Below are positions 2,719 to 56,880 of a stretch of DNA of 64,000 nucleotides, piece after piece; within the stretch, counting starts at the first letter, position 1, and each line of letters starts with the position of its first letter. The stretch comes from Bacillota bacterium. GTDB taxonomy: Bacteria; Bacillota; Desulfotomaculia; Desulfotomaculales; JBFMEU01. The notes beneath the pieces are model-generated. The model saw only the letters and a list, made by a program, of their open reading frames with translations, did not search any database and had not been told where the DNA came from. Both the position numbers and the translations under genes were made by a program. The stretch covers positions 5,633 through 69,632 of the forward strand of contig JBFMEU010000002.1 of the NCBI GenBank assembly GCA_040753155.1, written 5' to 3'.

Positions 2719-2852
2719 TTGAACGAGACTTAATTCAGAGGGGGATTCAACCCCCTCTGAATGTTAGCCGAGTCCATACTGGACTTAACCGCCCTTTGAA
2801 ACCCGCCGCCTACAGAGGCGGGGGTCTTAGGGCGGTTAAGTCCAGTGATAAA
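2719..2852 (-). mobile_element. A element copy A1 (two-hairpin ~135-nt element)
   Basis: ttgaacgagactt-ATTCAGAGGGGGattcaaCCCCCTCTGAAT-...-GGACTTAACCGCCC...GGGCGGTTAAGTCC-agtGATAAA. Confidence 0.8.
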
Positions 2853-5819: not shown

Positions 5820-6041
5820 TTATTTCTGCAGCAGCAGCAGGATATCCTCGCCCTGCTCAGTAACCTCGATCCGCCAGCCCTTGTTTTCGGCCAGCCGGGA
5901 CACGTTTTCCCTGGCCGCCGTGTGGCTGACCAGCACCTTGATGGCGCCGCTGTCCATGGTGTCCATAACCCGCTTGGTCAACAGTACAGGCTCCGGGCAT
6001 AACAGGCCCCGGGCGTCAACTTCCCTTGCCAATGCTCGCAC
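5820..6041 (-). CDS. yedF: TusA/SirA-like sulfurtransferase (short YedF-like partner of YedE)
   Basis: VDARGLLCPEPVLLTK carries the CPxP motif. It overlaps the end of yedE by 26 nt. Confidence 0.7.
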   Translation of the reverse strand: MRALAREVDARGLLCPEPVLLTKRVMDTMDSGAIKVLVSHTAARENVSRLAENKGWRIEVTEQGEDILLLLQK

Positions 6042-7095
6042 CCCCCGTCACGGCCGCCGGCCTGTTCAAGATGCCGATTACGGCCACAGCAAGCATGCCC
6101 AGGATAACCGCCACCTGGCCGGCCACCGGCACACCGGCGGGGCTGGCCGCCAGGCCGAAGTTGTGGGCCACGGCGGCCCCGGCCATGATGCCCATAATGG
6201 TCACGGCGCAGTCGGTGTTCCCCTCCCCGGCGGCCACCAGCTGCCGCAGCGGGCACCCGCCCAGGAGCACAGCGGCCCAGCCGGCCAGGGTCATGCCCAA
6301 AAAGTTCCACAGGCCGTCGGTGTGGGCCACCGGCTGCCCCTCAAACCCGATTTTAAAGGCGCCCACCGCCAGGTTGCCGATCAGGGCCACAATGAAGATG
6401 GCCACAAAGCCGTATAACAGGTGGCCGTCCCGGAAAAAGATGTAGTCCCTGATGCCGCCCACCATGCACAGCCGGGAGCGCTGGGCCATTATACCCACAA
6501 TCAGGCCAGCCCCCAGGGCGATCCAGATGGGCGCCGCCATGGAGCCGGGGCCCTGCTCACTGAAGAAGATGAAGGCCGGCTGGGCCAGCAGCAGAATTAA
6601 CAGGACCACCATCAGGCCGGTAAAAAGGTAGCCGTTGCCCCGCTGCTGGGGTACGGCCCGGCCCAGGGTGAACCCGTTTTTGAGAAACTGTACGCCGATG
6701 AGTACCCCTGCCACCAGGCCGATCAGGCCGACCCCGGCGTTAAGGTCGCCCCCCGCCAGGCGCAGGACGGCCCGCACCGGGCAGCCCAGGAAAACCAGCA
6801 TGCCGATCATGGCAATGAAGCCCAGGATGAACCGGGTGAAGGCGCTGGAGCCCCCCACGGACCTGAATTCTTTGGTGGCCAGGGAGGTAAAAAAGGCCCC
6901 CAGCACCAGTCCGATAATCTCGGGTCTTATGTACTGCACCGGGACCGCCCGTTGGAAGCCCAGGCCGCCGGTAATGTCCCGCAAAAAACAGGCTATGCAG
7001 TAGCCCATGTTGGCGGGGTTGCCCAGCAGCACCAGGATGACCGCCATCAGTCCCAGGGTCCCCCCGGCAGCAAGAATCAATAACCGCTTACTCAA
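6016..7095 (-). CDS. yedE: YeeE/YedE family membrane protein (selenium/thiosulfate-related transporter)
   Basis: GNPANMGYCIACFLRDITGGLGF and a second LCMVGGIRD half-repeat; polytopic. I place the start at TTG 7095 (SD gaggggg). The ORF track extends to 7176, across the tRNA. Confidence 0.8.
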   Translation of the reverse strand: MSKRLLILAAGGTLGLMAVILVLLGNPANMGYCIACFLRDITGGLGFQRAVPVQYIRPEIIGLVLGAFFTSLATKEFRSVGGSSAFTRFILGFIAMIGMLVFLGCPVRAVLRLAGGDLNAGVGLIGLVAGVLIGVQFLKNGFTLGRAVPQQRGNGYLFTGLMVVLLILLLAQPAFIFFSEQGPGSMAAPIWIALGAGLIVGIMAQRSRLCMVGGIRDYIFFRDGHLLYGFVAIFIVALIGNLAVGAFKIGFEGQPVAHTDGLWNFLGMTLAGWAAVLLGGCPLRQLVAAGEGNTDCAVTIMGIMAGAAVAHNFGLAASPAGVPVAGQVAVILGMLAVAVIGILNRPAAVTGGASIGKGS

Positions 7096-7120
7096 AAAAT
7101 AATACCCCCTCGAAATGATA

Positions 7121-7217
7121 TGGAGGGGAGAAGTCGGAGTCGAACCGGACTCCCGCCTGGATCGCAGACAGGCCAACGGGTTTGCAGCCCGCGGGGGCCA
7201 CCGGACCCTTTCTCCCC
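7121..7217 (-). tRNA. tRNASec-like tRNA with cysteine identity (anticodon GCA, discriminator U73, 8-bp acceptor stem, long extra arm)
   Basis: Minus-strand sequence: GGGGAGAAAGGGTCCGGTGGCCCCCGCGGGCTGCAAACCCGTTGGCCTGTCTGCGATCCAGGCGGGAGTCCGGTTCGACTCCGACTTCTCCCCTCCA. Acceptor GGGGAGAA/TTCTCCCC. Anticodon loop CTGCAAA. Extra arm GCCTG/CAGGC. T loop GGTTCGACTCC. CCA is encoded. Confidence 0.8.
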
Positions 7218-10814: not shown

Positions 10815-10849
10815 ACAAAGCATTAAAAATTCCGGATTGCTGTCCGGGT

Positions 10850-10911
10850 GAGTCAATGGGGACGGTTCCGGGTGACTCACGAGAGTCACCCGGAACCGTC
10901 CCCATTGACTC
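10850..10911. repeat. D palindrome D1
   Basis: gagtcaatggggacggttccgggtgactc-acgag-agtcacccggaaccgtccccattgactc. Confidence 0.9.
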
Positions 10912-10925
10912 AAAGGCTTACGTTT

Positions 10926-11169
10926 TCAATTTTGATACTTGCTCCAAAACCTCGGCCCAGGTATTGGGCTCCACCATGCGCAGGCGCCTGTCCCTGATCC
11001 GGTAATCCACCCCCGGAATAGCTTTTTTATACAGTACGCCGGGGCCGTTACCTTTACCAGACGGTACAGCCCCAGGACATTGCGGGGCCCCAGATTGCTG
11101 TCCACCTCGGAGGAATAAATCCAGATCAGCCGGGGCAGTTTGACGACGGTGGAGGGGGTGAGCAAGTTA
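10926..11169 (-). pseudogene. Truncated, frameshifted duplicate of the 3' end of the LCP-like gene at 13106-13879
   Basis: Roughly 85-90% nucleotide identity, by eye, to 13106-13345. The similarity stops exactly at the A2 junction (gagcaagtt|agccc). Confidence 0.8.
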
Positions 11170-11285
11170 GCCCTTTGAAACCCGCATCTGTAGGCGGCGG
11201 GTTTCAAAGGGCGGTTAAGTCCAGTATGGACTCGGCTAACATTCAGAGGGGGTTGAATCCCTCTCTGAATGAAGTCTCGTTCAAC
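11170..11285 (+). mobile_element. A element copy A2 (5'-truncated)
   Basis: ...gggcggttaagtccagtatggactcggctaacattcagagggggttgaatccctctctgaatgaagtctcgttcaac, directly followed by H-element sequence catggcgtttccgaag. Confidence 0.8.
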
Positions 11286-11345
11286 CATGGCGTTTCCGAA
11301 GTATGAGATATACGGTCCATTCTGACTCCTGACTCCTGAGTACCT
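11286..11345 (+). repeat. H element fragment H4
   Basis: catggcgtttccgaagtatgagatatacggtccattctgactcctgactcctgagtacc. Confidence 0.8.
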
Positions 11346-12862: not shown

Positions 12863-12997
12863 TTTATCACTGAACTAATCCGCCCTAAGACCCCCGCCTC
12901 TGTAGGCGGCGGGTTTCAAAGGGCGGTTAAGTCCAGTATGGACTCGGCTAACATTCAGAGGGGGTTGAATCCCCCTCTGAATGAAGTCTCGTTCAAC
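12863..12997 (+). mobile_element. A element copy A3 (full length)
   Basis: TTTATC-actgaactaatccgccctaagaccc...ggcggttaagtccagtatggactcggctaacATTCAGAGGGGGttgaatCCCCCTCTGAATgaagtctcGTTCAAC. Confidence 0.85.
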
Positions 12998-13105: not shown

Positions 13106-13879
13106 TTACGTTTTAAAATCTGACACCTGCTCCAAAACCTTGGTCCAGGTATGGGGCTCCACCACCCGCAGGCGTCTGTCCCTGATCTGGTAGTCCACCC
13201 CCGGGATGGCCTTTTTATACAGTACGCCGGGACCGTTTACCTTTACCAGGCGGTATAGCCCCAGGACATGGCGGGGCCCCAGGTTGCTGTCCACCTCGGT
13301 GGAGTAGATCCAGATCAGCTGGGGCAGTTTGACCACGGTGGAGGGGGTGAGCAAGTTGGCCGCCAGACCCCGGATCTCTGCCTGCAGGCTGTTGGGGCGG
13401 TCGTCGTAATTGCCCTCAAACACGTCCAGCAGGGTGGTCTCATTCTCGCCTATGTCAATGGCCCCCACCACTTCACTCATGTGGCTGAGGGTAGACTGGT
13501 CAATTATCACGTAATACTGGATGGGCTGCCGGAACATCTGCTCCAGCCTGGAGGTCAGCTCTGTTCGCCCCTGCCTGTAATAGGTATCGGCCACGGTAAC
13601 CTCAGCCTGCGGTGTGTCCAGGCAGATAAACAGGGGGATGGACACGATGCCCACCGGCCGGTCCCGGGAGAAGCTCAGCAGGGTTACTGCCTTCAGGTCT
13701 TGCTCATCCGTCCAGAACAGCAGCAGGTTGCCCGCAGTTGATACGGCCGGCGCCGGCAGTTGGTATTCAGGATAAACCGGGCCTGCGGCCCGGGCCGGGT
13801 GAGGGCTAACCAGAAGGAGGACCAGGCAGCAGGTAAGTACTGAGATTGCCGGTCTCACGACGCCACATCCTTTCCACAT
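13106..13879 (-). CDS. Secreted LytR-CpsA-Psr (LCP)-like protein, divergent
   Basis: N-terminal signal/TM segment. LLLFWTDEQD..AVTLLSFSRDRPVGIVSIPLFICLD...QYYVIIDQSTLSHMSEVVGAIDI parallels the LCP core layout. Confidence 0.5.
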   Translation of the reverse strand: MWKGCGVVRPAISVLTCCLVLLLVSPHPARAAGPVYPEYQLPAPAVSTAGNLLLFWTDEQDLKAVTLLSFSRDRPVGIVSIPLFICLDTPQAEVTVADTYYRQGRTELTSRLEQMFRQPIQYYVIIDQSTLSHMSEVVGAIDIGENETTLLDVFEGNYDDRPNSLQAEIRGLAANLLTPSTVVKLPQLIWIYSTEVDSNLGPRHVLGLYRLVKVNGPGVLYKKAIPGVDYQIRDRRLRVVEPHTWTKVLEQVSDFKT

Positions 13880-16597: not shown

Positions 16598-16832
<235 letters not shown>

Positions 16833-18684: not shown

Positions 18685-21030
18685 TTACCTCCTTGGTGTG
18701 CCGGGTGTAGTTTTCACCTCTCCCAGGCGCCTTTCCAGGCGCCCCAATTCAGCCAGGCAGGCAGTTGTTTTTTGGCCGGCCGGCCTTTGTTCCAGCGCCT
18801 CCCGGAGATCTTTAAGCACTCCGGCCAGGGGCGCGGCCAGTTGTGAACCGGCTGCAAGCCGGATTGCCTCAATCAGGTGACGGAAGTCCTTGTCCCGGGG
18901 ATTTACGGATGCCCGGCGGGCCGAGAGGAAGAATAACCGCTCGTCGGCGCGGAGTGTGGTCGGGGATAGGCTCTCCCGGATGTAGTTCCTGACTTTTTCC
19001 CTTTCCCGGGGGCTCAGGGTGTCAGCAAAATTGATCACCAGCATGAGCCGGGCCGGGCCCTGCTGCAGGCTGCCGCCGCCCGGCCCCTGCCGGATTAGCC
19101 GGCTCAGGGCCGGCAGTTGGTCCCGGTCGGCGGTGTTCAGCACGTGCCTGGCGTTTAAGAAAAACAATACTGACTGGTCCCCCTTGTTGAACGAGATTTC
19201 ATTCAGAGGGGGATTCAATCCCCTCTGAATGTTAGCCGGGTCCATACTGGACTTAACCGCCCTTTGAAACCAGCTGCCTGCAGAGGCCGGGGTCTTAGGG
19301 CGGATTAGTTCAGTGATAAAACTTGAGGTTGTTTCCCGGTGCCTGCGGTGAACCGAGTCCAGGCCCGGTGTGTCAATCAGGACCAGGCCGCTCAGCAGTT
19401 CCGAGGGATGGGTGATTTCAACCCGGCTCAGCCGGAAGCTGTCCGGCCAGGCCAGGTGGCGTACGAGGGCCAGTTTGCCGGCGGCGGTATCCAGGCTCAG
19501 GGTTAAGGTATTTTCCTCCCGGAAGGTAACCTGGACGGCAACCGGCAAATCGGCGGTTATTCTTGTGGCCGGAACCGCCTGAAACAGGGTGGGCGCCGTG
19601 TTTAGCCCCGGCTGCCCGGCCAGGCCGGCGGCAAAGAGCCGGGCGGCGCTGTGGAGTTGATTCAGCAGTTGGTATTTACTTACCTTCTTGCGGCCGGCCT
19701 GGCTAATCAGCTCCAGACGGCCCAGCTCAGGCCCGGACTCCGGCTTCCCCAGCCAGCCGGTAAGAGCCTTGACTTCCTCCCGGCAGTACAGGGCCGCTTC
19801 TCCGTCCAGATGGATAACCGGCACGTCAATCTGCAGCGGATAGTGGAGGGTGGCCTGTTTAACCTGACCCTGCCTGACCCGGGTCAGGCAGGAGGTGGTG
19901 GGGCCGTCTCCGGTGGGCAGGATTTCCTCACCCAGCATGACGTTGATAAAAGTTGTCTTGCCGGAGGAAAAGCCCCCGGCTATAGTCACTGGAAATGCCC
20001 CTTGCTCCAGCCGGCGCCTCAGGGCGTCAGCTTGCCCGGTGGCCGGCAGGCCGGTCATTGAAGGGTCGGCGCAGAACCGGTCCAGCAGCTCCAGCAGGGA
20101 CCGCCTTACCTGGATCAGGCCCTTATTGGCCTGGTCCGGGTGGGCCGGCGGCTGATATTTCAGCCGGCCCTCCCGGGCCGGGCCGCTCAGGTTGCGGCGG
20201 GCGGCAATTCTGGCCCCGGCCCGGGACTGCAGGAGTTCCCCGGCCTGTAAAATTGAGGCCGCCCTTTGCTTGAGGTCCCATAAATCAGCCAGGAACTCCA
20301 GGTCGCCGGGCCGGGCCAGGGTGGTCTTCAGGGCTTTGGGGATAGCCTCGTCCATAGTCCGCAAATTCCGGTTGAGTTCCTCAATCCGGCGGGCGGCTGC
20401 CTCCACTTCCAGCAGGGTGCGCAGGGAGTTTACAGCTGCAGGGTTGGTAATGTCAATGGCCAAGGGCTGCAAGCCGGCTTTGAAAATTTGCCGCAGGCAG
20501 GCTGCGGTAACCCCCGGGGCAGAGTCGTCCGGATGGCCGGTGTTATGATTCAAGATGAAAATAATGTCCCGGGGATTAATTTGGCGCCGCCGGGCCAGTT
20601 CCTCCAGAAACTGCTTGCCGGCATTATCAAGGCCCCGCTGGTGCAAAAGGAAGAGCGCCAAATCGGCGCCGGCCGCCGCCTCCATGGCGGCCGCCCGGTG
20701 CTCCGGGCTGGTGTCGAAGCCAGGTGTGTCCAAGAGCAGGCACTTTTGCAGCAGCCTGCAGGGCAGAGCCACCTCCCGTACCCTCCGGGCGCGGGCCGGG
20801 CCGGAGACGGCGGGGCCATAAACATACTTGACAGTCACCATGGTGGTGGGAACCACATCCACTGGTGCGACATAATTTTCCAGCAGGGCGTTAATTAAAG
20901 TGGATTTGCCGGCGTTATAGGGGCCGGCAACAGCCACCGTCGGCAGGCGGACTCCGGCAGGCCAGTTCTCCAGCAGCATGTCCGCCTGGCGAATAAAGTT
21001 TTCTGCCGCCGTCATGGTATATACCTCCAA
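18685..21030 (-). CDS. Tandem-GTPase dynamin-like protein (BDLP/DynA-like), carrying an in-frame A-element insertion
   Basis: Module 1: G1 GPYNAGKST and G3 DTPGFD. Module 2: G1 GGFSSGKTT, G2 region PTGDGPTTSCLT, G3 DTPGLDS and NFAD. 781 aa. Confidence 0.75.
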   Translation of the reverse strand: MEVYTMTAAENFIRQADMLLENWPAGVRLPTVAVAGPYNAGKSTLINALLENYVAPVDVVPTTMVTVKYVYGPAVSGPARARRVREVALPCRLLQKCLLLDTPGFDTSPEHRAAAMEAAAGADLALFLLHQRGLDNAGKQFLEELARRRQINPRDIIFILNHNTGHPDDSAPGVTAACLRQIFKAGLQPLAIDITNPAAVNSLRTLLEVEAAARRIEELNRNLRTMDEAIPKALKTTLARPGDLEFLADLWDLKQRAASILQAGELLQSRAGARIAARRNLSGPAREGRLKYQPPAHPDQANKGLIQVRRSLLELLDRFCADPSMTGLPATGQADALRRRLEQGAFPVTIAGGFSSGKTTFINVMLGEEILPTGDGPTTSCLTRVRQGQVKQATLHYPLQIDVPVIHLDGEAALYCREEVKALTGWLGKPESGPELGRLELISQAGRKKVSKYQLLNQLHSAARLFAAGLAGQPGLNTAPTLFQAVPATRITADLPVAVQVTFREENTLTLSLDTAAGKLALVRHLAWPDSFRLSRVEITHPSELLSGLVLIDTPGLDSVHRRHRETTSSFITELIRPKTPASAGSWFQRAVKSSMDPANIQRGLNPPLNEISFNKGDQSVLFFLNARHVLNTADRDQLPALSRLIRQGPGGGSLQQGPARLMLVINFADTLSPREREKVRNYIRESLSPTTLRADERLFFLSARRASVNPRDKDFRHLIEAIRLAAGSQLAAPLAGVLKDLREALEQRPAGQKTTACLAELGRLERRLGEVKTTPGTPRR
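19186..19320 (-). mobile_element. A element copy A4, inserted in frame (135 nt = 45 codons) in the dynamin-like gene
   Basis: gttgaacgagatttcATTCAGAGGGGGattcaatCCCCTCTGAAT...ggcggattagttcagtGATAAA. It is translated as ...LIRPKTPASAGSWFQRAVKSSMDPANIQRGLNPPLNEISF... Confidence 0.85.
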
Positions 21031-21096: not shown

Positions 21097-21241
21097 GTAA
21101 CTATTCAGGAGTCGGGAGTCAGGAGTCGGGAGTCAGGAGTCGGGAGTCAGAAGTCAGGAGTCAGAAGTCAGGAGTCAGGAGTCAGAATGAGAAAACCGGC
21201 GAAAACATTACTTCTGAATTCTGAATACCTGAATAAGTAAC
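21097..21241 (+). repeat. H element copy H6 (minimal: 11 heptamers, 8 codons, 3' arm)
   Basis: gtaactattc-(aggagtc/gggagtc/agaagtc)x11-agaatgagaaaaccggcgaaaacatt-acttctgaattctgaatacctgaataagtaac. Confidence 0.9.
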
Positions 21242-21335: not shown

Positions 21336-21474
21336 ATAAAGAAGACTTGGTTCAGGTGGAGTTTTAACCCATACGTTGGGGACATTCCTGTCCTCAGAGA
21401 AATACCCAAGCTTCAGCAGGTGTGTCCCCTTTCCTTATGCGAGGGCGGGGTCTTACAGGCTGTGCGAAGATAAA
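21336..21474 (+). repeat. C element copy C1
   Basis: ataaaGAAGACTTGGTTCAGgtggagttttaacccatacgttGGGGACAttcctgtcctcagagaaatacccaagcttcagcaggtgTGTCCCCtttccttatgcgagggcggggtCTTACAGGCTGTGCGAAGATAAAg. Confidence 0.85.
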
Positions 21475-22870: not shown

Positions 22871-23767
22871 ATGGCCAGCCAAGATAGTAGGCGTAGTGTT
22901 GGCGGTCTTTTGGCCGCAGCCCGGGCTTACCTGAGGGAATGTGGCTCGGAGAGCCCCGGCCTTGATGCCGAGGTGCTTCTGGCCCACTGCCTGGGGGCCG
23001 GCCGGCTGGATCTGTACCGGGCGCCGGACCGGATCCCGGACAGCGGCCAGGCTTCCGGGTACCTGGATTTGATTGCCAGGCGCGGCCGGGGGGAACCGGT
23101 GGCCTATCTGACCGGACATAAGGAGTTTATGGGGCTCGACCTGGCGGTCGGGCCTCCTGTGCTGATTCCCCGCCCGGAAACCGAGCTGCTGGTGGAGCAG
23201 GCCCTGGAACTGCTGGGCTTATCCCTGGCGGAAAGACCGGGCGGCCGGCTGGCGGTGGATGTGGGCGCCGGCAGCGGGGCCATTGCTGTCAGCCTGGCGG
23301 TTTTTATGCCCCGGGTGCGGGTGCTGGCCACCGATATATCCGGGGAGGCCCTGGCCGTGGCCCGCCGCAATGCGGCCCGCCACGGGGTGGCAAGGCAGGT
23401 TTCCTTTTTTCAGGGAGACTTGCTGACCCCTCTGACTATACCCGCCCTGCAGGGGCAGGTGGACCTGGTGGCCGCCAACCTGCCCTACATCCCGGCCGGT
23501 GACCTGGAGGCTTTGCCCCGGGATGTCCGGGCCTACGAGCCCCGGCTGGCCCTGAACGGCGGTCCTGACGGCCTGTCCCTCTACCGCCGGCTGGTGCCCG
23601 ATGCCGGCAGGCTGCTGCGGCCCGGCGGCTTTTTGCTGATGGAGATTGGCCCCGGCCAGGGGCGGGCCTGCCTGGGCCTGGTACCGGCCCCCGTCTGGGA
23701 GAGTGTGCTGCTGCCCGACCTGGCCGGGCGGGAGCGTCTGGTGGTGGCAGTTAAAATGAGTCAATAG
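22871..23767 (+). CDS. prmC: Release-factor glutamine N5-methyltransferase
   Basis: VDVGAGSGAIAV SAM motif and the NPPY-type motif (here ANLPYIP). Immediately follows prfA. Confidence 0.88.
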   Translation: MASQDSRRSVGGLLAAARAYLRECGSESPGLDAEVLLAHCLGAGRLDLYRAPDRIPDSGQASGYLDLIARRGRGEPVAYLTGHKEFMGLDLAVGPPVLIPRPETELLVEQALELLGLSLAERPGGRLAVDVGAGSGAIAVSLAVFMPRVRVLATDISGEALAVARRNAARHGVARQVSFFQGDLLTPLTIPALQGQVDLVAANLPYIPAGDLEALPRDVRAYEPRLALNGGPDGLSLYRRLVPDAGRLLRPGGFLLMEIGPGQGRACLGLVPAPVWESVLLPDLAGRERLVVAVKMSQ

Positions 23768-23818
23768 GGACGGTTCCTGGTGACTCGCGCGAGTCACCCG
23801 AAACCGTCCCTATTGACT
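23759..23818. repeat. D palindrome D2, overlapping both convergent stop codons
   Basis: agtcaatagggacggttcctggtgactcgcgcgagtcacccgaaaccgtccctattgact. Confidence 0.9.
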
Positions 23819-24492
23819 TACAGCAAATTGGTTCCCGCGTGCCAGGCGGTGGCGGCGCCGATAAACATGACCGCCAGCCCGGTGACTGCCGCCAGGCGGG
23901 TCCAGGCGCGGCGGCTGATAAAATCCCCGGCCAGGTGGGAAACCTTGAGGAAAACCAGTCCCACACCAATCATGGCCAGGGCGGCCCCGGCACCAAAGGC
24001 CAGCACCACGCCCAGGCCCGCGGCCAGCGTTCCGGCACTGATGGATAAAAGCAGCGCCGCCAGGGCCCCGGGGCAGGGCATCAGCCCGTTCATGAAACCC
24101 AGCAGGACCAGGGTTGAAAGGTCCAGGGGGCGGTCTTGCTTGCTCAGGGAGAAATGATGGTGGTTGCAGCAGGGCTTGCGCCTGGGCAGCAGCCGGTAGC
24201 CCACCGCCACAATCAGCAGGCCGGATAAAAGCTGCAGCCACAGCCTGATCCGGTCCGGGGTCAATTCGGTGCCGGTGGCCACCAGGGCTGCCGCCGAGTG
24301 GGCCGTCACCGCCAGCAACACCACCACCAGGGTGTGGGTGGCGGCGGAGATAAGCCCCAGCAGAACAGCATGTATTGCCCGGCCCCGGGAAAGGACCAGG
24401 TAGGCCCCCATCACCCCCTTGCCGTGGCCGGGTTCCAGAGCGTGCAAAGCTCCCAGGCCAAAGGCGGAAAAAAGATAAAGCAGGTAGCTCAT
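23818..24492 (-). CDS. NicO/UreH-like metal (Ni/Co/Zn) transporter family membrane protein
   Basis: LHALEPGHGKG motif, His/Cys-rich loop KPCCNHHH, and GFMNGLMPCPGAL. Next to zur-znuACB. Confidence 0.55.
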   Translation of the reverse strand: MSYLLYLFSAFGLGALHALEPGHGKGVMGAYLVLSRGRAIHAVLLGLISAATHTLVVVLLAVTAHSAAALVATGTELTPDRIRLWLQLLSGLLIVAVGYRLLPRRKPCCNHHHFSLSKQDRPLDLSTLVLLGFMNGLMPCPGALAALLLSISAGTLAAGLGVVLAFGAGAALAMIGVGLVFLKVSHLAGDFISRRAWTRLAAVTGLAVMFIGAATAWHAGTNLL

Positions 24493-24527
24493 CGGGCGGA
24501 ATCCTCCTCGTAATGGCAGTGATAAAC

Positions 24528-24756
24528 GATAAAGAAGACTTGGTTCAGGTGGGGTTTTAACCCATACGTTGGGGACATTCCTCCGAAGGAGGTGTGTCCC
24601 CTACCCGCTAAACCTTAGTCGCACTTATTTCGAGCTTACAGCCTGTTAATCCCATTAGTTGGGGACATTCCTGTCCTCAGAGAAATACCCAAGCTTCAGC
24701 AGGTGTGTCCCCTTTCCTTATGCGGTGGCGGGGTCTTACAGGCTGTGCGAAGATAA
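24528..24756 (+). repeat. C element copy C2 (double-module version)
   Basis: Module 1 contains GGGGACAttcctccgaaggaggtgTGTCCCC. An internal cttacagcctgt then leads to module 2, GGGGACAttcctgtcctcag...caggtgTGTCCCC. Ends cttacaggctgtgcgaaGATAAA. Confidence 0.85.
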
Positions 24757-24757
24757 A

Positions 24758-24866
24758 CCGCAAGTACGAACAGGTTCGTCTTCTGCCATACCAGTAATCC
24801 TCAAACGTTTTCGCTGGTTTTCTCATTCTGACTCCTGATTCCTGACTTCTGACTCCTGAGTAGTTA
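24758..24866 (-). repeat. H element copy H7 (5' half only, truncated at the TTTATC site by C2)
   Basis: The reverse complement reads gtaataactactc(aggagtc..)agaatgagaaaaccagcgaaaacgtttgaggattactggtatggcagaagacgaacctgttcgtacttgcgg|tttatc. Confidence 0.85.
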
Positions 24867-24927
24867 TTACGTTTAAACATATTCAGAGCTCGTACACCTT
24901 TATGACGGCGCCCCTGGATTATTTTTC

Positions 24928-27252: not shown

Positions 27253-28131
27253 GTGGATTACATGTTTGAGTACGAGTTTATGGTCCGGGCCATGCTTGCC
27301 GGCCTGGTGGCCGGCATAATTTGCCCCGCGGTAGGGGTTTTCGTGGTTATGCGGCGCTATTCCTTTATGGCCGATACCCTGGCCCATGTTTCCCTGGCCG
27401 GGGTGGCGGCGGGCGCCCTGCTGGGCGTATATCCCGCCGTTACCACCCTTGGCTTTGCCATGGCCGCCGCCACAGTCATTGAGAAGCTGCGCTCCGGGCC
27501 AAGGCTGTACGGCGAGGCCGTGCTGGCGCTGATGATGAGCGGCGGTCTGGCCCTGGCCGTGGTGCTGATCAGCCTGTCCCGGGGCATGAGCATTGACATC
27601 TTCGGCTATCTTTTTGGCAGCGTCCTTACCGTCGGCCCGGGTGACCTGTGGCTGATCGCCGGCCTGGGCTGCGCTGTTCTGGCCGTGATAATATTATTCT
27701 ACAAGGAGCTCTACTACATATCCTTTGATGAAGAGGCAGCCCGGGTGGCCGGCCTGCCGGTGGATCGTTTGAATTTTATCTTTGTGCTGCTGGTGGCGGT
27801 TACCGTGGCGGTCTCCATGCGCATTGTGGGGACCCTGCTGGTCAGCGCCCTGATGGTGATTCCCGTGCTCACCGCCCTGCTGGTGGCCGGCAGCTTCCGC
27901 AGCGCCTTCATAACCGCCGTATTCCTGGGAGTGGTATCAGTTGCCCTGGGGCTTACCGGCTCATACTACCTGGGCATTGCCGCCGGCGGCGCCGTAGTCC
28001 TTACCGCCCTGGTCTTTTTCGTCCTTACCCTGAGCGGCAAACAGCTGCGCCAGGCCTGGCAGCGCCGCCTGTTGGCCCCGGGCGCCCCGAAAAAGGTGAA
28101 AGAGGAACTGGTAACAGGGGATGGCTCTTGA
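27253..28131 (+). CDS. znuB: Zinc ABC transporter permease
   Basis: 292 aa, polytopic, ABC-3 family pattern (FDEEAARVAGLPV). Confidence 0.88.
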   Translation: MDYMFEYEFMVRAMLAGLVAGIICPAVGVFVVMRRYSFMADTLAHVSLAGVAAGALLGVYPAVTTLGFAMAAATVIEKLRSGPRLYGEAVLALMMSGGLALAVVLISLSRGMSIDIFGYLFGSVLTVGPGDLWLIAGLGCAVLAVIILFYKELYYISFDEEAARVAGLPVDRLNFIFVLLVAVTVAVSMRIVGTLLVSALMVIPVLTALLVAGSFRSAFITAVFLGVVSVALGLTGSYYLGIAAGGAVVLTALVFFVLTLSGKQLRQAWQRRLLAPGAPKKVKEELVTGDGS

Positions 28132-28191
28132 GTCAAGGGGGACGGTTCCTGGCGACTCACGTGAGTCGCCAGGAACCGTCCCCCTTGACTC
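28130..28191. repeat. D palindrome D3 (perfect 31+31 nt), overlapping the znuB stop codon
   Basis: gagtcaagggggacggttcctggcgactcac|gtgagtcgccaggaaccgtcccccttgactc. Confidence 0.95.
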
Positions 28192-28206
28192 AAAACGGAG
28201 GTGGAC

Positions 28207-31033: not shown

Positions 31034-31099
31034 CTGGAGGAAACCCGCGGTTTGTGTAGAACTGAATTCCGTAGGGATTTGGAACAACAACTCCGGCGT

Positions 31100-31246
31100 C
31101 TTACAGGCTGTACGAAGATAAAGAAGACTTGGTTCAGGGGGGGGTTTAACCCATACGTTGGGGACATTCCTCCGAAGGAGGTGTGTCTCCTATCCGCTAA
31201 ACCTTAGTCGCACTTATTTCGAGTTTACAGCTTGTACGAAGATAAA
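31100..31246 (+). repeat. C element copy C3 (module 1 bounded by two copies of the 23-nt end sequence)
   Basis: cttacaggctgtacgaagataaa-gaagacttggttcag...GGGGACAttcctccgaaggaggtgTGTCTCC...tcgcacttatttcgag-tttacagcttgtacgaagataaa. Confidence 0.85.
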
Positions 31247-33732: not shown

Positions 33733-33850
33733 TCCGCCCTAAGACCCCCGCCTCTGTAGGCGGCGGGTTTCAAAGGGCGGTTAAGTCCAGTATGAACTCG
33801 GCTAACATTCAAAGGGGGTTGAATCCCCCTCTGAATGAAGTCTCGTTCAA
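33733..33850 (+). mobile_element. A element copy A5 (5'-truncated); contains the stop codon of the MCP gene
   Basis: ccgccctaagacccccgcctctgtaggcggcgggtttcaaagggcggttaagtccagtatgaactcggctaacattcaaagggggttgaatccccctctgaatgaagtctcgttcaa. Confidence 0.8.
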
Positions 33851-35682: not shown

Positions 35683-36043
35683 TCAGAAGTCAGAAGTCAG
35701 AAGTCAGAAGTCAGGAGTCAGGAGTCAGGAGTCAGAATGAGAAAACCAGCGAAAACATCTGAAGATTTACTGGTATGGCGGAAGTCTTAATAGGCGCCTG
35801 TTTGCACTTGCGGTTCAACGTTTATCACTGAACTAATCCGCCCTAAGACCCCCGCCTCTGTAGGCGGCGGGTTTCAAAGGGCGGTTAAGTCCAGTATGGA
35901 CTCGGCTAACATTCAGAGGGGGTTGAATCCCCCTCTGAATGAAGTCTCGTTCAACCATTGCAAGAGGTTAGTAAATTGCTGGAAGCATATTCTCGGGGCA
36001 TTCTGAATCCTGACTTCTGAATTCTGAATACCTGAATAGTAAC
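35683..36043 (+). repeat. H element copy H8, interrupted by A element A6
   Basis: (agaagtc/aggagtc) array, then agaatgagaaaaccagcgaaaacatctgaagat...cttgcggttcaacgTTTATC[A6]cattgcaagagg...ggaagcatattctcggggcattctgaatcctgacttctgaattctgaatacctgaatagtaac. Confidence 0.9.
35821..35955 (+). mobile_element. A element copy A6 (full length, nested in H8)
   Basis: tttatcactgaactaatccgccctaagaccc...ctctgaatgaagtctcgttcaac. Same sequence as A3. Confidence 0.9.
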
Positions 36044-36190: not shown

Positions 36191-36284
36191 ATAAAGAAGA
36201 CTTGGTTCAGGCGGGGTTTTAACCCATACGTTGGGGACATTCCTTATGCGAGGGCGGGGTCTTACAGGCTGTGCGAAGATGAAA
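36191..36284 (+). repeat. C element copy C4 (short recombinant form)
   Basis: ataaagaagacttggttcaggcggggttttaacccatacgttggggacattcct|tatgcgagggcggggtcttacaggctgtgcgaagatgaaa. Confidence 0.8.
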
Positions 36285-40157: not shown

Positions 40158-40574
40158 ATGTACAAACCAAGCCCGATAAGAGATATAGACGAACAATTCC
40201 GGCGTACGGCGGTAATCACCGGGATGATCCTGGCGGCTGCCGGTACGCTGTTGATTTGGGATCCCCAAAACCCACTGGTCCGGGGCTTTCTGCTTGGTGG
40301 TTTGTGCGGCCTGTTCAACGCCAAAACTCTGGTCAGGCGGATGCACGCGATGGCCGGCCTTGACGCCAGGCGGGCCAACAACCTCATGAAGCAGGGCAGT
40401 TTTATGCGTATGGCTTTGGTAATCGCCCTGGCCCTCCTGGCCAGCCGAACCGAAGCTATCAGCTTGTTTGGAGTAGGCGCGGGTCTTTTAACCGTTACCC
40501 TGATTACGGCAACGGATGCGCTGTTCAGCCTGGGCAGGTATTTTGCGGCGCGCGGCGCCGTGGATAGAATATAA
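40158..40574 (+). CDS. atpI: ATP synthase protein I
   Basis: 138 aa membrane protein between atpZ and atpB. Confidence 0.7.
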   Translation: MYKPSPIRDIDEQFRRTAVITGMILAAAGTLLIWDPQNPLVRGFLLGGLCGLFNAKTLVRRMHAMAGLDARRANNLMKQGSFMRMALVIALALLASRTEAISLFGVGAGLLTVTLITATDALFSLGRYFAARGAVDRI

Positions 40575-40729
40575 AGAAGACTTGGTTCAGTCGTACTTAT
40601 TTCGAGTTTACAGCCTGTTAATCCCATTAGTTGGGGACATTCCTGTCCCCAGAGAAATACCCAAGCTTCAGCAGGTGTGGCCCCTTTCCTTATGCGAGGG
40701 CGGGATCTTACAGGCTGTGCGAAGATAAA
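40571..40729 (+). repeat. C element copy C5 (inside the atp operon, between atpI and atpB)
   Basis: ataaagaagacttggttcag|tcgtacttatttcgagtttacagcctgt-taatcccattagttGGGGACAttcctgtcc...caggtgTGGCCCC...cttacaggctgtgcgaagataaa. The atpI stop lies in the left junction. Confidence 0.85.
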
Positions 40730-40763: not shown

Positions 40764-41492
40764 GTGAAAACTTATCAAGAGATAGAATATGAAGTTAACG
40801 TATGGGGCTTTCCCAAGGAACCCATCGAGACCTTCATAGGACAGATCAACGCCATGACCATTGTGCACACGTGGATTGTCATGTTTCTAGTAGCTGTGCT
40901 CCTGATCGCGGCAACCAGAAGCATGAGCCTGGAAAGACCGGGTAAGCTGCAGTTGATCATCGAGGAAATCTTCCAGTTTCTGCGGGGCGTAACCAGAGAC
41001 AGTCTGGACGCCAAAAAGGCTTCCTTGATGATGTGTTTTGTATTTAGTCTTTTTATGTTCATTTTAATTTCCAACCTGTGGGGCCTGATTCCCACCATGT
41101 ATTCCCCGACGGCGGATTTAAACACCACCATGGGGCTGGCGCTAATGGTATATGGGTTGACTGTAGTCCTGGGGATCTATTACAAGGGATTAAAGTACTT
41201 TAAACATTTTATCCAGCCATTCCCGTTCTTCCTTCCTCTGGTCATCGTTGAAGAACTGGCCAAGCCGCTAACCATGGCCTTCCGTCTTTACGGGAACGTA
41301 TACGCCGGCAAGGTGTTGGTTTACGTCCTGCTGGGCTTGATTCCCCTAACGGCGACTCTGATGGGCGGTTTTATTGCCTCGGTGATTTGGCTGGCCTTTA
41401 AGATCTTTATCAGCTGTGTCCAGGCCTATATTTTCTTCGTACTGACCGTTACCTATACATCCCAGGCCATCATGGAAGCGGATCATCATTAA
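40764..41492 (+). CDS. atpB: F0F1 ATP synthase subunit a
   Basis: [17 protein letters not shown] (conserved Arg region). 242 aa. Confidence 0.92.
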
Positions 41493-54228: not shown

Positions 54229-54247
54229 TCCCTGAAAAAGATATTTG

Positions 54248-54448
54248 GTTATTATTCAGGTATTCAGAATTCAGGAGTCAGGATTCAGAATGGACCGTAT
54301 AGCTCATACTTCGGAAACGCCATGGTTGAACGATAAACGGCAAGTACGAACAGGCGCGCCTTCTGCCATGCCAGTAAATCTTCAAATGTTTTCGCTGGTT
54401 TTCTCATTCTGACTCCTGACTTCTGACTCCTGACTCCTGAGTAGTTAC
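54248..54448 (-). repeat. H element copy H9 (40-codon ORF remnant with the apparently ancestral VYRST codons)
   Basis: The reverse complement encodes MRKPAKTFEDLLAWQKARLFVLAVYRSTMAFPKYELYGPF*. Arms are ctcaggagtcaggagtcagaagtcaggagtcagaatg and cattctgaatcctgactcctgaattctgaatacctgaataataac. Confidence 0.9.
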
Positions 54449-54616
54449 GATACTTGTCATATTTCGCGCCGGGCGCCCTGGATACCTGCCGGGAAAAGCA
54501 GCCTGTCCCCCTTATTTCCAATTGATGTTTACCAGTTCAGCGAATTAATTGCGGCCTGGCGCATATACATTTATTAGCTTAAATCCAAGCCCCAATAGAT
54601 TCGGGGAGGTAAGGCG

Positions 54617-56137: not shown

Positions 56138-56312
56138 GCCTTCTAGTGAGCAGTGGGCAGTATTTCCCGCTATTTTTTTATTGTATTGTTCTTGCTCATA
56201 ACTTACAATGTTTGTGGTTGGAAAGGTTGCGATGATTTAATTGTATATATTCAGTGAAACCGGTGTTAAGGCACTGCGGTATCACCGCTCGCTCCAGTGC
56301 TCCGCGCAGAAG

Positions 56313-56425
<113 letters not shown>

Positions 56426-56667
56426 GGGTGCTGTTACCGGCTATGCTGCGTCGTTCGCTAACGATAACGCCGTGCCTCCACCTGGTTTGCTGAATGCTTA
56501 CATTTAATTACAGTGCTAAAGCGGCTTCACCCCCGCGGGGCAATTTGAGGGCACTGGAGCTGTAAGTTGAATTTTTAAGGGGGATTCGTAAGTATCAAGT
56601 AGCAGTTACGAGGAAATTGCTTCCTGGCGGGAACGAAACAGGCGCCTTAATCGTCTATACAATAGGA

Positions 56668-56880
56668 GTAACTACTCAGGAGTCAGAAGTCAGAAGTCAG
56701 AAGTCAGGAGTCAGAATGAGAAAACCAAGGTTCTGTTGAAGAATGCCGATATTACTTGATGCTTACGAAGGATCTTGGATACGGTGATATTTACGAAACA
56801 AAACTTCTCTAATTGCTGGAAGCATATTCTCGGGTCATTCTGAATACTGACTCCTGAATTCTGAATACCTGAATAGTAAC
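56668..56880 (+). repeat. H element copy H11 (internally deleted, same deletion type as H2)
   Basis: gtaactactc(aggagtc/agaagtc)x4agaatgagaaaaccaaggttctgttgaagaatgccgat...ggaagcatattctcgggtcattctgaatactgactcctgaattctgaatacctgaatagtaac. Confidence 0.9.

Follow-up and report, generated by a model that had tools for sequence, protein, structure and literature searches.

A gene-less mobile element family of Bacillota inserts 3' of TTTAT-type targets and is probably a non-autonomous IS200/IS605-type element

In a 64,000-nt stretch of a Bacillota bacterium genome (contig JBFMEU010000002.1, positions 5,633 to 69,632, forward strand; hereafter the window), a decayed repeat unit named H8 is interrupted by a short insert, which we refer to as element A. 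H8 represents one copy of a repeated unit H, in which a decayed mini open reading frame (ORF) of the PF05635 family is bounded by a GAGTCAG-type heptamer array on the left and an inverted array on the right. At the insertion site, H8 reads cttgcg GTTCAAC GTTTATC ACTGAAC...GTCTC GTTCAAC cattgc, and A consists of a C followed by ACTGAAC...CGTTCAA. The sequences quoted in a preliminary description of this DNA were all verified at the positions given there. Six A copies locate in the window, of which four are full-length and two are damaged at the left end. The parts of H8, the internal parts of A and the other copies are listed in Table 1, in which a slash marks a junction.

Table 1. Features of the H8 locus, the A copies and related H sites in the window
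Position	Strand	Feature	Basis or remark
35683..35736	+	H8 left heptamer array, GAGTCAG-type	bounds host element H8
35737..35812	+	H8 body, decayed N-terminal remnant of a four-helix-bundle (PF05635) mini-ORF	ATG at 35737; 'four helix bundle protein' is the name given to homologous mini-ORFs, which have PF05635 matches
35813..35819	+	GTTCAAC heptamer; native H copies have GTTTATC here	L054, L055 and most homologous mini-ORFs (AVYRLS)
35821..35825	+	target motif TTTAT, host sequence, with A directly 3'	flank logo and empty sites
35826..35954	+	A element, 129 nt, CACTGAAC...GTCTCGTTCAA, without coding capacity of its own	repeat comparison; folding against shuffles
35844..35848	+	TAAGA, candidate DNA guide adjoining the left hairpin on its 5' side	last base A (35848) covaries with the last target base (T)
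35849..35871	+	left-end imperfect hairpin CCCCCGCC-TCTGTA-GGCGGCGGG, one bulged C	resembles the IS200-type left-end hairpin
35911..35940	+	right-end hairpin ATTCAGAGGGGG-TTGAAT-CCCCCTCTGAAT	one stem position mismatched in most family members
35950..35954	+	right-end motif TTCAA, last five bases of A, 9 nt past the hairpin	can serve as a target itself
35955..36043	+	H8 right part, C-terminal mini-ORF remnant and inverted heptamer array (CTGACTC-type)
2719..2847	-	full A copy, after TTTAT
11170..11284	+	A copy with rearranged left end, right side joined to an H remnant (GTTCAA/CCATGGCG)
12868..12996	+	full A copy, intergenic, after TTTAT
19187..19315	-	full A copy in a dynamin-family GTPase ORF (18685-21030, minus strand), in frame, 43 codons, no stop	ortholog without insert
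33733..33850	+	A copy without its first ~15 nt
16742..16755	+	H5, unoccupied paralogous site GTTCAAC GTTTAT/C = GTTCAACGTTTATC, then catggcg	first heptamer changed as in H8; nothing after the second TTTAT
54325..54338	-	H9, GTTTATCGTTCAAC (reverse complement)	first heptamer native GTTTATC, second GTTCAAC
24515..24767	-	H copy with a family B element after the first TTTAT and, behind the second TTTAT, a footprint of A (CACTG, 5 nt)	B insertion without footprint at L055:13772

We scanned species-representative genomes with a 22-nt right-end pattern of A and found at least 53 loci. The matches listed include Lutispora saccharofermentans, two Lutispora metagenome-assembled genomes (MAGs), Paradesulfitobacterium ferrireducens, a Clostridiaceae MAG and a Thermoanaerobacterales MAG. 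The flank and target statistics are based on 59 full copies from eight genomes. In these copies, positions -6 to -1 before ACTGAAC read T55, T49, T42, A56, T38/A17 and C58, and the bases farther upstream and those after GTTCAA are random, with no duplication. Position -1 is a C in 58 of the 59 copies and the base after GTTCAA is unconstrained, so this C belongs to A. Positions 3 and 5 of the preceding pentanucleotide differ among otherwise identical copies in one genome, which assigns them to the target and not to the element. Thus, A inserts precisely 3' of TTNAW, most often TTTAT, with specificity on the left side alone and without target duplication.

This rule refines what the preliminary description had proposed. 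TTTATC does precede all four left-intact copies in the window, and no window copy shows a target duplication; the supposed target hexamer, however, is the pentanucleotide TTTAT plus the first base of A. The flank logo that had been suggested as a check gives TTNAW before A and random sequence after it. The competing idea, that TTTATC is a conserved start of the element accompanied by target duplications, is contradicted by the variable positions 3 and 5 and by the lack of duplications. GTTCAA ends all six window copies, as described, but the C said to follow it is not conserved across copies (A15 C18 G5 T21). A duplication of GTTCAAC, suggested by H8 alone, is ruled out because it is absent at the other copies. 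TTTAT occupies 0.15% of positions per strand in the window, and it lies directly before the four intact window copies and before 28 of the 59 copies in the eight genomes, an association with A far above chance.

Comparing occupied with unoccupied sites defines the boundary of A. The unambiguous pair comes from a Lutispora repeat family, in which GTATTT/TGTGAA is opposed to GTATTT[CACTGAAC...CGTTCAA]TGTGAA. In a second repeat family, CGTTTAT/CGTGG is opposed to CGTTCAT[C...GTTCAA]CGTGG. The paralogous sets comprise H5 against H8, L032/L014/L039 against L036, and L051/L048 against L011 (L numbers label loci and contigs). At an orthologous site, L080 reads GACTTCAT/CAAGGGGGACC, and the window reads AGTTTTAT[129 nt]CAAGGGGGACC. 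Here, the GTPase homolog without A, taken as an ortholog, comes from another metagenome, is 72% identical and runs uninterrupted in protein and DNA. All four empty/occupied comparisons are exact, the unoccupied site being one flank joined to the other, and the boundary of A is therefore C...GTTCAA. H5, already regarded as an unoccupied site in the preliminary description, fits the same boundary. Metagenome contigs also contain exact head-to-tail junctions, GTTCAA/CACTGAAC. The right-end TTCAA of A matches the target consensus, and at each of these junctions an element with a T in the guide follows the TTCAA of a remnant. The junction between the A copy at 11170 and the H remnant H4 (11279-11292) reads GTTCAACCATGGCG.

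A folds strongly compared with shuffled sequence, with a z score of -8.6 as DNA and -9.5 as RNA. The left hairpin is nested within an outer stem (35838-35844 / 35878-35884), and the right hairpin is followed by the right-end stretch GAAGTCTCGTTCAA. Both hairpins are conserved across genera, with 91% of cells paired, some compensatory changes and one irregular position each. The termini share only a 5-nt complementarity (TGAAC/GTTCA), and A has no terminal inverted repeats.

The A family is modular. Forms of 127-129 nt are the commonest, forms of 55-57 nt keep the right hairpin alone, longer forms carry extra small modules nested in their loops, and short remnants consist of the termini alone. 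At one orthologous site, a short form in one genome corresponds to a long form in the other (L022 and L032). Conservation across genera is high, with a mean column identity of 89% in a 27-sequence alignment. A ~46-nt module, GTACCCCAGGGCACCTTCTCTTGCCCCTGCGGGGCAATTCACCTTG, is nested at several positions in Lutispora copies, and a ~70-nt module lies within the right-hairpin loop of Paradesulfitobacterium copies. Copies with nested modules occur in L004, L009, L012, L014, L016, L018-L020, L030, L031, L043 and L053, and in L026, L027 and L038.

Searches of other collections returned no A. Rfam 15 gives no match at the gathering score, and its best sub-threshold matches (E<=10) lie far under the cut-offs; ARAGORN calls no tRNA in any A copy; blastn against plasmid and phage collections yields no match; and the right-end pattern has no match in viral contigs. 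A 16-nt left-end pattern has 20 matches in viral contigs, all of them unrelated, several being reverse-complemented tRNA D-arm regions. The A family appears to be unnamed in the resources searched. A is a gene-less mobile element that is widespread in Bacillota.

We notice that the last target base covaries with a base inside A, namely the one that directly precedes the inner left hairpin (CTAAG[A/T]CCCCCGCC). The target/guide combinations T/A and A/T occur 27 and 14 times, A/A twice and T/T never. Of these 43 A/T cases, 41 are Watson-Crick (Fisher p = 1.5e-9). The covariation is visible within single genomes (14/0/1/2 in Lutispora saccharofermentans, 7/0/0/2 in a Lutispora MAG), in both of which the two sub-types coexist. 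Because the target lies outside A, the insertions are independent samples, which indicates that the specificity is encoded by the element. IS200/IS605 elements recognize their target through base pairing with a short DNA guide that adjoins the foot of the left hairpin on its 5' side. In IS608, the target is TTAC and the guide AAAG. The pattern in A, TTAT with AAGA (T-A, T-A, A-G, T-A), parallels that of IS608.

Such behavior has precedents. Covariation between the guide and the transposon-associated motif (TAM) has been described for IS605-family elements, and the target motifs of IS605-family elements in Geobacillus are TTTAT and TTCAT, with gene-less PATE-like copies present as well (PMC10055086). 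Published traits of IS200/IS605 elements are a T-rich pentanucleotide target (TTTAT, TTCAT, TTGAT), specificity on the 5' side alone, no duplication and no inverted terminal repeats (PMC10055086, PMC4227781).

On this basis, we propose a mechanism for A. The active strand would carry at its left end the 5-nt guide TAAGA beside an imperfect hairpin, and at its right end a hairpin and the terminal TTCAA. A transposase acting in trans would cut a single strand 3' of the TTNAW target and 3' of the TTCAA of A. The strand of A, presumably processed as single-stranded DNA, would then be joined in without target duplication, and the last target base would be selected through pairing with the last guide base. 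In H8, the TTTAT used by A is the second of an adjacent pair.

A candidate for the type of enzyme is found on a related contig. L082 carries two H copies together with a complete IS200-type transposase gene (143 aa, PF01797), of which a second full copy lies on L083; it comes from the same metagenome as L055, which holds close H, A and B copies (B being a second repeat family, described below). The left end of the L082 element consists of TTTAT, 16 nt, CTAAAA and CCTTCGCC-TTTA-GGCGAAG, and that of A of TTTAT, 17 nt, CTAAGA and CCCCCGCC-TCTGTA-GGCGGCGGG. Their alignment scores 30, compared with 13.8 +/- 2.9 for shuffled sequences, and 3 of 2000 shuffles reach 30. The L082 transposase is a relative of the likely enzyme. 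The right ends are dissimilar, and the L082 element is therefore not demonstrated as the partner of A. Of the elements with A-like ends that the preliminary description suggested looking for, a Y1 element with a similar left end was found, and none matching both ends among the window, the 53 loci and the related contigs.

IS200-type transposase genes are also found in Desulfosporosinus sp. Tol-M and in metagenomes (L084-L093). The protein is encoded on 24 contigs from many samples. In all ten places shown, the gene lies between scpB and an integrase-like gene, and it looks like a fixed single copy and not an active multi-copy insertion sequence. Using this transposase for defining insertion sequence ends failed, since all ten places are the same locus.

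Our findings support the idea that A is a non-autonomous IS200/IS605 (Y1/HUH, 'peel and paste') element of the PATE kind, and we assign this reading a probability of about 0.7. The preliminary description had reached the same reading, and it agrees with the target logo, the four empty sites, the head-to-tail junctions, the covariation and the similar left end of a Y1 element; the mobilizing enzyme itself is presumed. Several observations weigh against the reading. The right end of the L082 element is unlike that of A, with another hairpin, a spacer of 3 nt instead of 9 nt, and TTTAG instead of TTCAA. No transposase gene was found in the window, as the preliminary description had stated, or in the 53 loci around the copies (~424 kb), by tblastn with IS608 and ISDra2 transposase sequences and by ORF clustering, and no Y1 element sharing both ends of A was found among the window, the 53 loci and the related contigs. 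The ORF clustering around A copies revealed no recurrent element-linked gene. The covarying guide comprises one position only, and a right-end guide, sought by analogy with IS608, showed no consistent register. The two hairpins of A are unlike in sequence and polarity, whereas the ends of IS608 are near-identical hairpins, and the 55-57-nt form with a single hairpin is present at several loci. Elements of this family are expected to favor the lagging-strand template; the orientation of A relative to the local gene majority, a crude proxy on draft contigs, shows a weak bias (36 on the same strand, 24 opposite). The unlike right end, the lack of a nearby Y1 gene, the 36:24 ratio, the unlike hairpins and the one-hairpin form keep our estimate for the Y1 mechanism from being higher.

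The lack of a cognate transposase in the window and the 53 loci, as well as the difference between the right end of A and that of the IS200-type element, would also be compatible with movement by a non-Y1 route. Such a route might be the bcr-type, 'site-specific recombination-like' one, an IS607-type serine recombinase, IS91-type rolling-circle transfer or an IS110-type system. The bcr repeats are similar in size to A and TTTAT-bounded, with a mechanism that is not established, and an IS110-type ORF is present in two of the loci; in L012, this ORF is far from the A copy. Core exchange of the serine, tyrosine or IS110 type is hard to reconcile with junctions that share no common core, specificity on the 5' side alone and the lack of duplication. 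In addition, single-base target covariation beside the foot of a hairpin is a specific signature of a Y1 guide, and the left-end layout of A matches that of a real IS200 end. We regard a non-Y1 route as quite unlikely. It is far less probable still that A is conserved in place as a structured RNA gene or a regulatory element. The strong conserved secondary structure, the very high sequence conservation across genera and the mostly intergenic location near gene ends would suit an RNA, but presence and absence at orthologous and paralogous sites contradict it. Copies within coding regions, both orientations relative to genes, nested and truncated copies, and the lack of an Rfam family at any threshold also argue against it, although A copies may still be transcribed. 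A miniature inverted-repeat element of a DDE transposon is ruled out, as A has neither terminal inverted repeats nor target duplication. So is an integron attC-like or core-site recombination, because no core is common to the two junctions and A copies do not form cassette arrays.

The H units allow the history of the insertion site to be followed. These miniature PF05635 remnants between inverted GAGTCAG arrays locate in the window at 1590-1770, 16600-16830, 21100-21240, 24757-24870, 35683-36043, 54240-54450, 56300-56430 and 56660-56880, and many copies exist here and in related metagenomes. The native site reads cttgcg GTTTATC GTTTATC catggcg (L054; L055:8845), and thus offers two adjacent TTTAT targets, which lie in the conserved Val-Tyr-Arg-Leu-Ser codons of the mini-gene. 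Homologous mini-ORFs mostly read AVYRLSMAFP, including longer and more intact ones that reach the conserved core of the family. At L055:10057, the native site holds an A copy after the second TTTAT. L081 has the state of H9, in which the second heptamer is changed, at a different locus, and L082 shows it in the form GTTCGAC. The TTTAT pair of H has been hit repeatedly by A and by the related family B.

The preliminary description had interpreted H5 and H9 as permuted 7-mers; compared with the native site, they are two single replacements of GTTTATC by GTTCAAC. Nor do these heptamers fit the proposed footprint of insertion and excision cycles, since canonical excision by Y1 always retains the target motif, which ends up connected to the right flank, and therefore cannot leave TTCAA. 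Deletion by the host fits better. By slippage from the (C/G)GTT of the left junction to the CGTT at the end of the element, the host may delete an A copy and leave GTTCAAC, and such a deletion across a strongly folding insert is plausible. The GTTCAAC heptamers in H5, H8 and H9 are most likely deletion scars of lost A copies. In H8, the heptamer next to the insert is probably the scar of an earlier copy lost from the first target. H8 would then derive from an H5-like copy that had lost A at the first target, and the present A would have arrived later at the second. Homolog P0023 has three heptamers, showing that slippage occurs at the site. Alternatively, the differences among H5, H8 and H9 may have arisen by point mutation or gene conversion among H paralogs, independently of A. 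Two substitutions (TAT to CAA) suffice for each change, both alleles keep the reading frame, the variant GTTCGAC exists, and repeated H copies may exchange sequence. However, H5 and H9 differ in nine places, five of them in a stretch of 15 nt, and the changed heptamers are the exact terminal bases of A at both positions where A and B insert. Partial A remnants consisting of the termini alone are, moreover, common. We therefore consider this alternative unlikely. In a second host repeat family, from Lutispora, of which only four copies were found, no TTCAA scars were seen.

A few copies of A lie within genes. Of its six reading phases, A has a single open one, and at least five copies inside long ORFs are on the same strand as the ORF, in the open phase and of a length divisible by three. 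They interrupt the GTPase ORF of the window and, in other genomes, ORFs of 1035, 490, 616 and 258 aa (L013, L023, L051 and L007); the Pfam check covered the window ORF, which belongs to the dynamin-family GTPases. The insert adds ~43 residues with the conserved peptide ...TELxRPKxPAS.GGG.QRAVKSSMDS.NIQRGLNPPLNEVSF. This in-frame pattern is what selection would be expected to leave.

A second family, B, shares TTTAT-type targets with A. Its copies (21336-21474, 24529-24757, 31094-31235, 36191-36283 and 40563-40729) are modular, range from 93 to 229 nt, start after TTTAT or TTCAT with CTTCGCACAGCCTGTAAGACCCCGCC, and end in CCAAGTCTTCTTTAT; the stretch TAAGACCCCGCC is common to the left end of A. 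The copy at 31094-31235 is an exact tandem pair with a TTTAT/C junction. All five B copies are less than 300 nt upstream of plus-strand genes (prfA, fur, rpiB, a dCMP-deaminase-like gene and the ORF at 40764), in the opposite orientation.

Other repeats were noticed in the window. A ~255-nt direct repeat (10918-11172 and 13106-13361), which overlaps the end of an ORF of the LytR_cpsA_psr family, lies left of the A copy at 11170 and right of that at 12868, and may be a local segmental duplication. At 494-605, a perfect array of ~16 GAGTGTG heptamers is joined directly to a short GAGTCAG array. A 66-nt near-perfect palindrome, TGAGTCAATGGGGACGGTTCC...GGAACCGTCCCCATTGACTCA, is present in three intergenic copies (10849-10914, 23757-23822 and 28129-28194). 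On the minus strand, a gene at 7125-7217 is scored by Rfam as selenocysteine tRNA, with 51 bits and thus over the cut-off, whereas ARAGORN gives its anticodon as GCA (Cys); the gene adjoins an ORF of a sulphur-transport family (6016-7176).

Among the closest known systems are PATEs (palindrome-associated transposable elements), derivatives of IS200/IS605 elements that lack genes. The PATE-like copies of ISGst elements in Geobacillus stearothermophilus (PMC10055086) are likewise gene-less and dependent on movement in trans, and have hairpins near their ends and neither duplication nor terminal inverted repeats. Their insertion point is 3' of a T-rich pentanucleotide, which for ISGst2 is TTTAT as in A, and this motif covaries with an internal guide. 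Four of seven defining features of PATEs are found in A, namely the 5'-side target, the lack of target duplication and terminal inverted repeats, the end hairpins and the guide covariation, and none is contradicted. A differs from PATEs in that no autonomous element was found to match it at both ends, in its two mutually unlike hairpins, in its modular build, with 55-nt one-hairpin, 129-nt and nested-module forms, and in its ~90% identity between genera. It also shows no sign of an encoded TnpB guide RNA. The IS200-type elements of L082, L083 and L087 share with A the TTTAT target, the left-end order of 16-17 nt, (C/T)TAA(A/G)A and a C-rich hairpin arm, and a TTNAN-type right motif, but they possess the 143-aa transposase gene and a right end composed of a hairpin, 3 nt and TTTAG. 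Elements of this kind are known, and nothing changes in the understanding of how they work.

The repeats bcr1-bcr3 of the Bacillus cereus group were compared with A by their published descriptions. Like A, they belong to Bacillota, are ~100-155 bp long, form two stem-loops with compensatory changes and are variably distributed. They are bounded by TTTAT on both sides, an arrangement that family B shows exactly (TTTAT/...TTTAT), whereas in A only the left boundary is TTTAT and the right end is TTCAA. In the bcr literature, TTTAT has been read as a duplicated target, and the mobility mechanism has been called unknown or uninvestigated. Rickettsia palindromic elements (RPE) are short palindromic repeats that sit in frame in protein-coding genes, which remain open, and they resemble A in outcome only: most A copies are intergenic, and the in-frame cases are explained by the survival of open-phase insertions. 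As a speculation that we hold to be rather doubtful, A and B could be the clostridial and peptococcal counterparts of bcr, all of them belonging to one broad class of gene-less hairpin elements in Bacillota. Single-copy host transposases of the IS200 type would keep them mobile, in a REPIN/RAYT-like manner, the one-base guide would give TTTAT and TTTAA/TTCAA sub-families within one genome, and the open phase would allow the 43-residue inserts.

For genome annotation, the family matters because A copies yield spurious ORFs, 43-residue insertions in real proteins and broken assemblies. For the biology of these repeats, A provides a clean natural case of element-encoded single-base retargeting by a gene-less element of the IS200/IS605 type, seen within single genomes, and it suggests a concrete mechanism, open to testing, for bcr and other short Bacillota repeats that have TTTAT boundaries.

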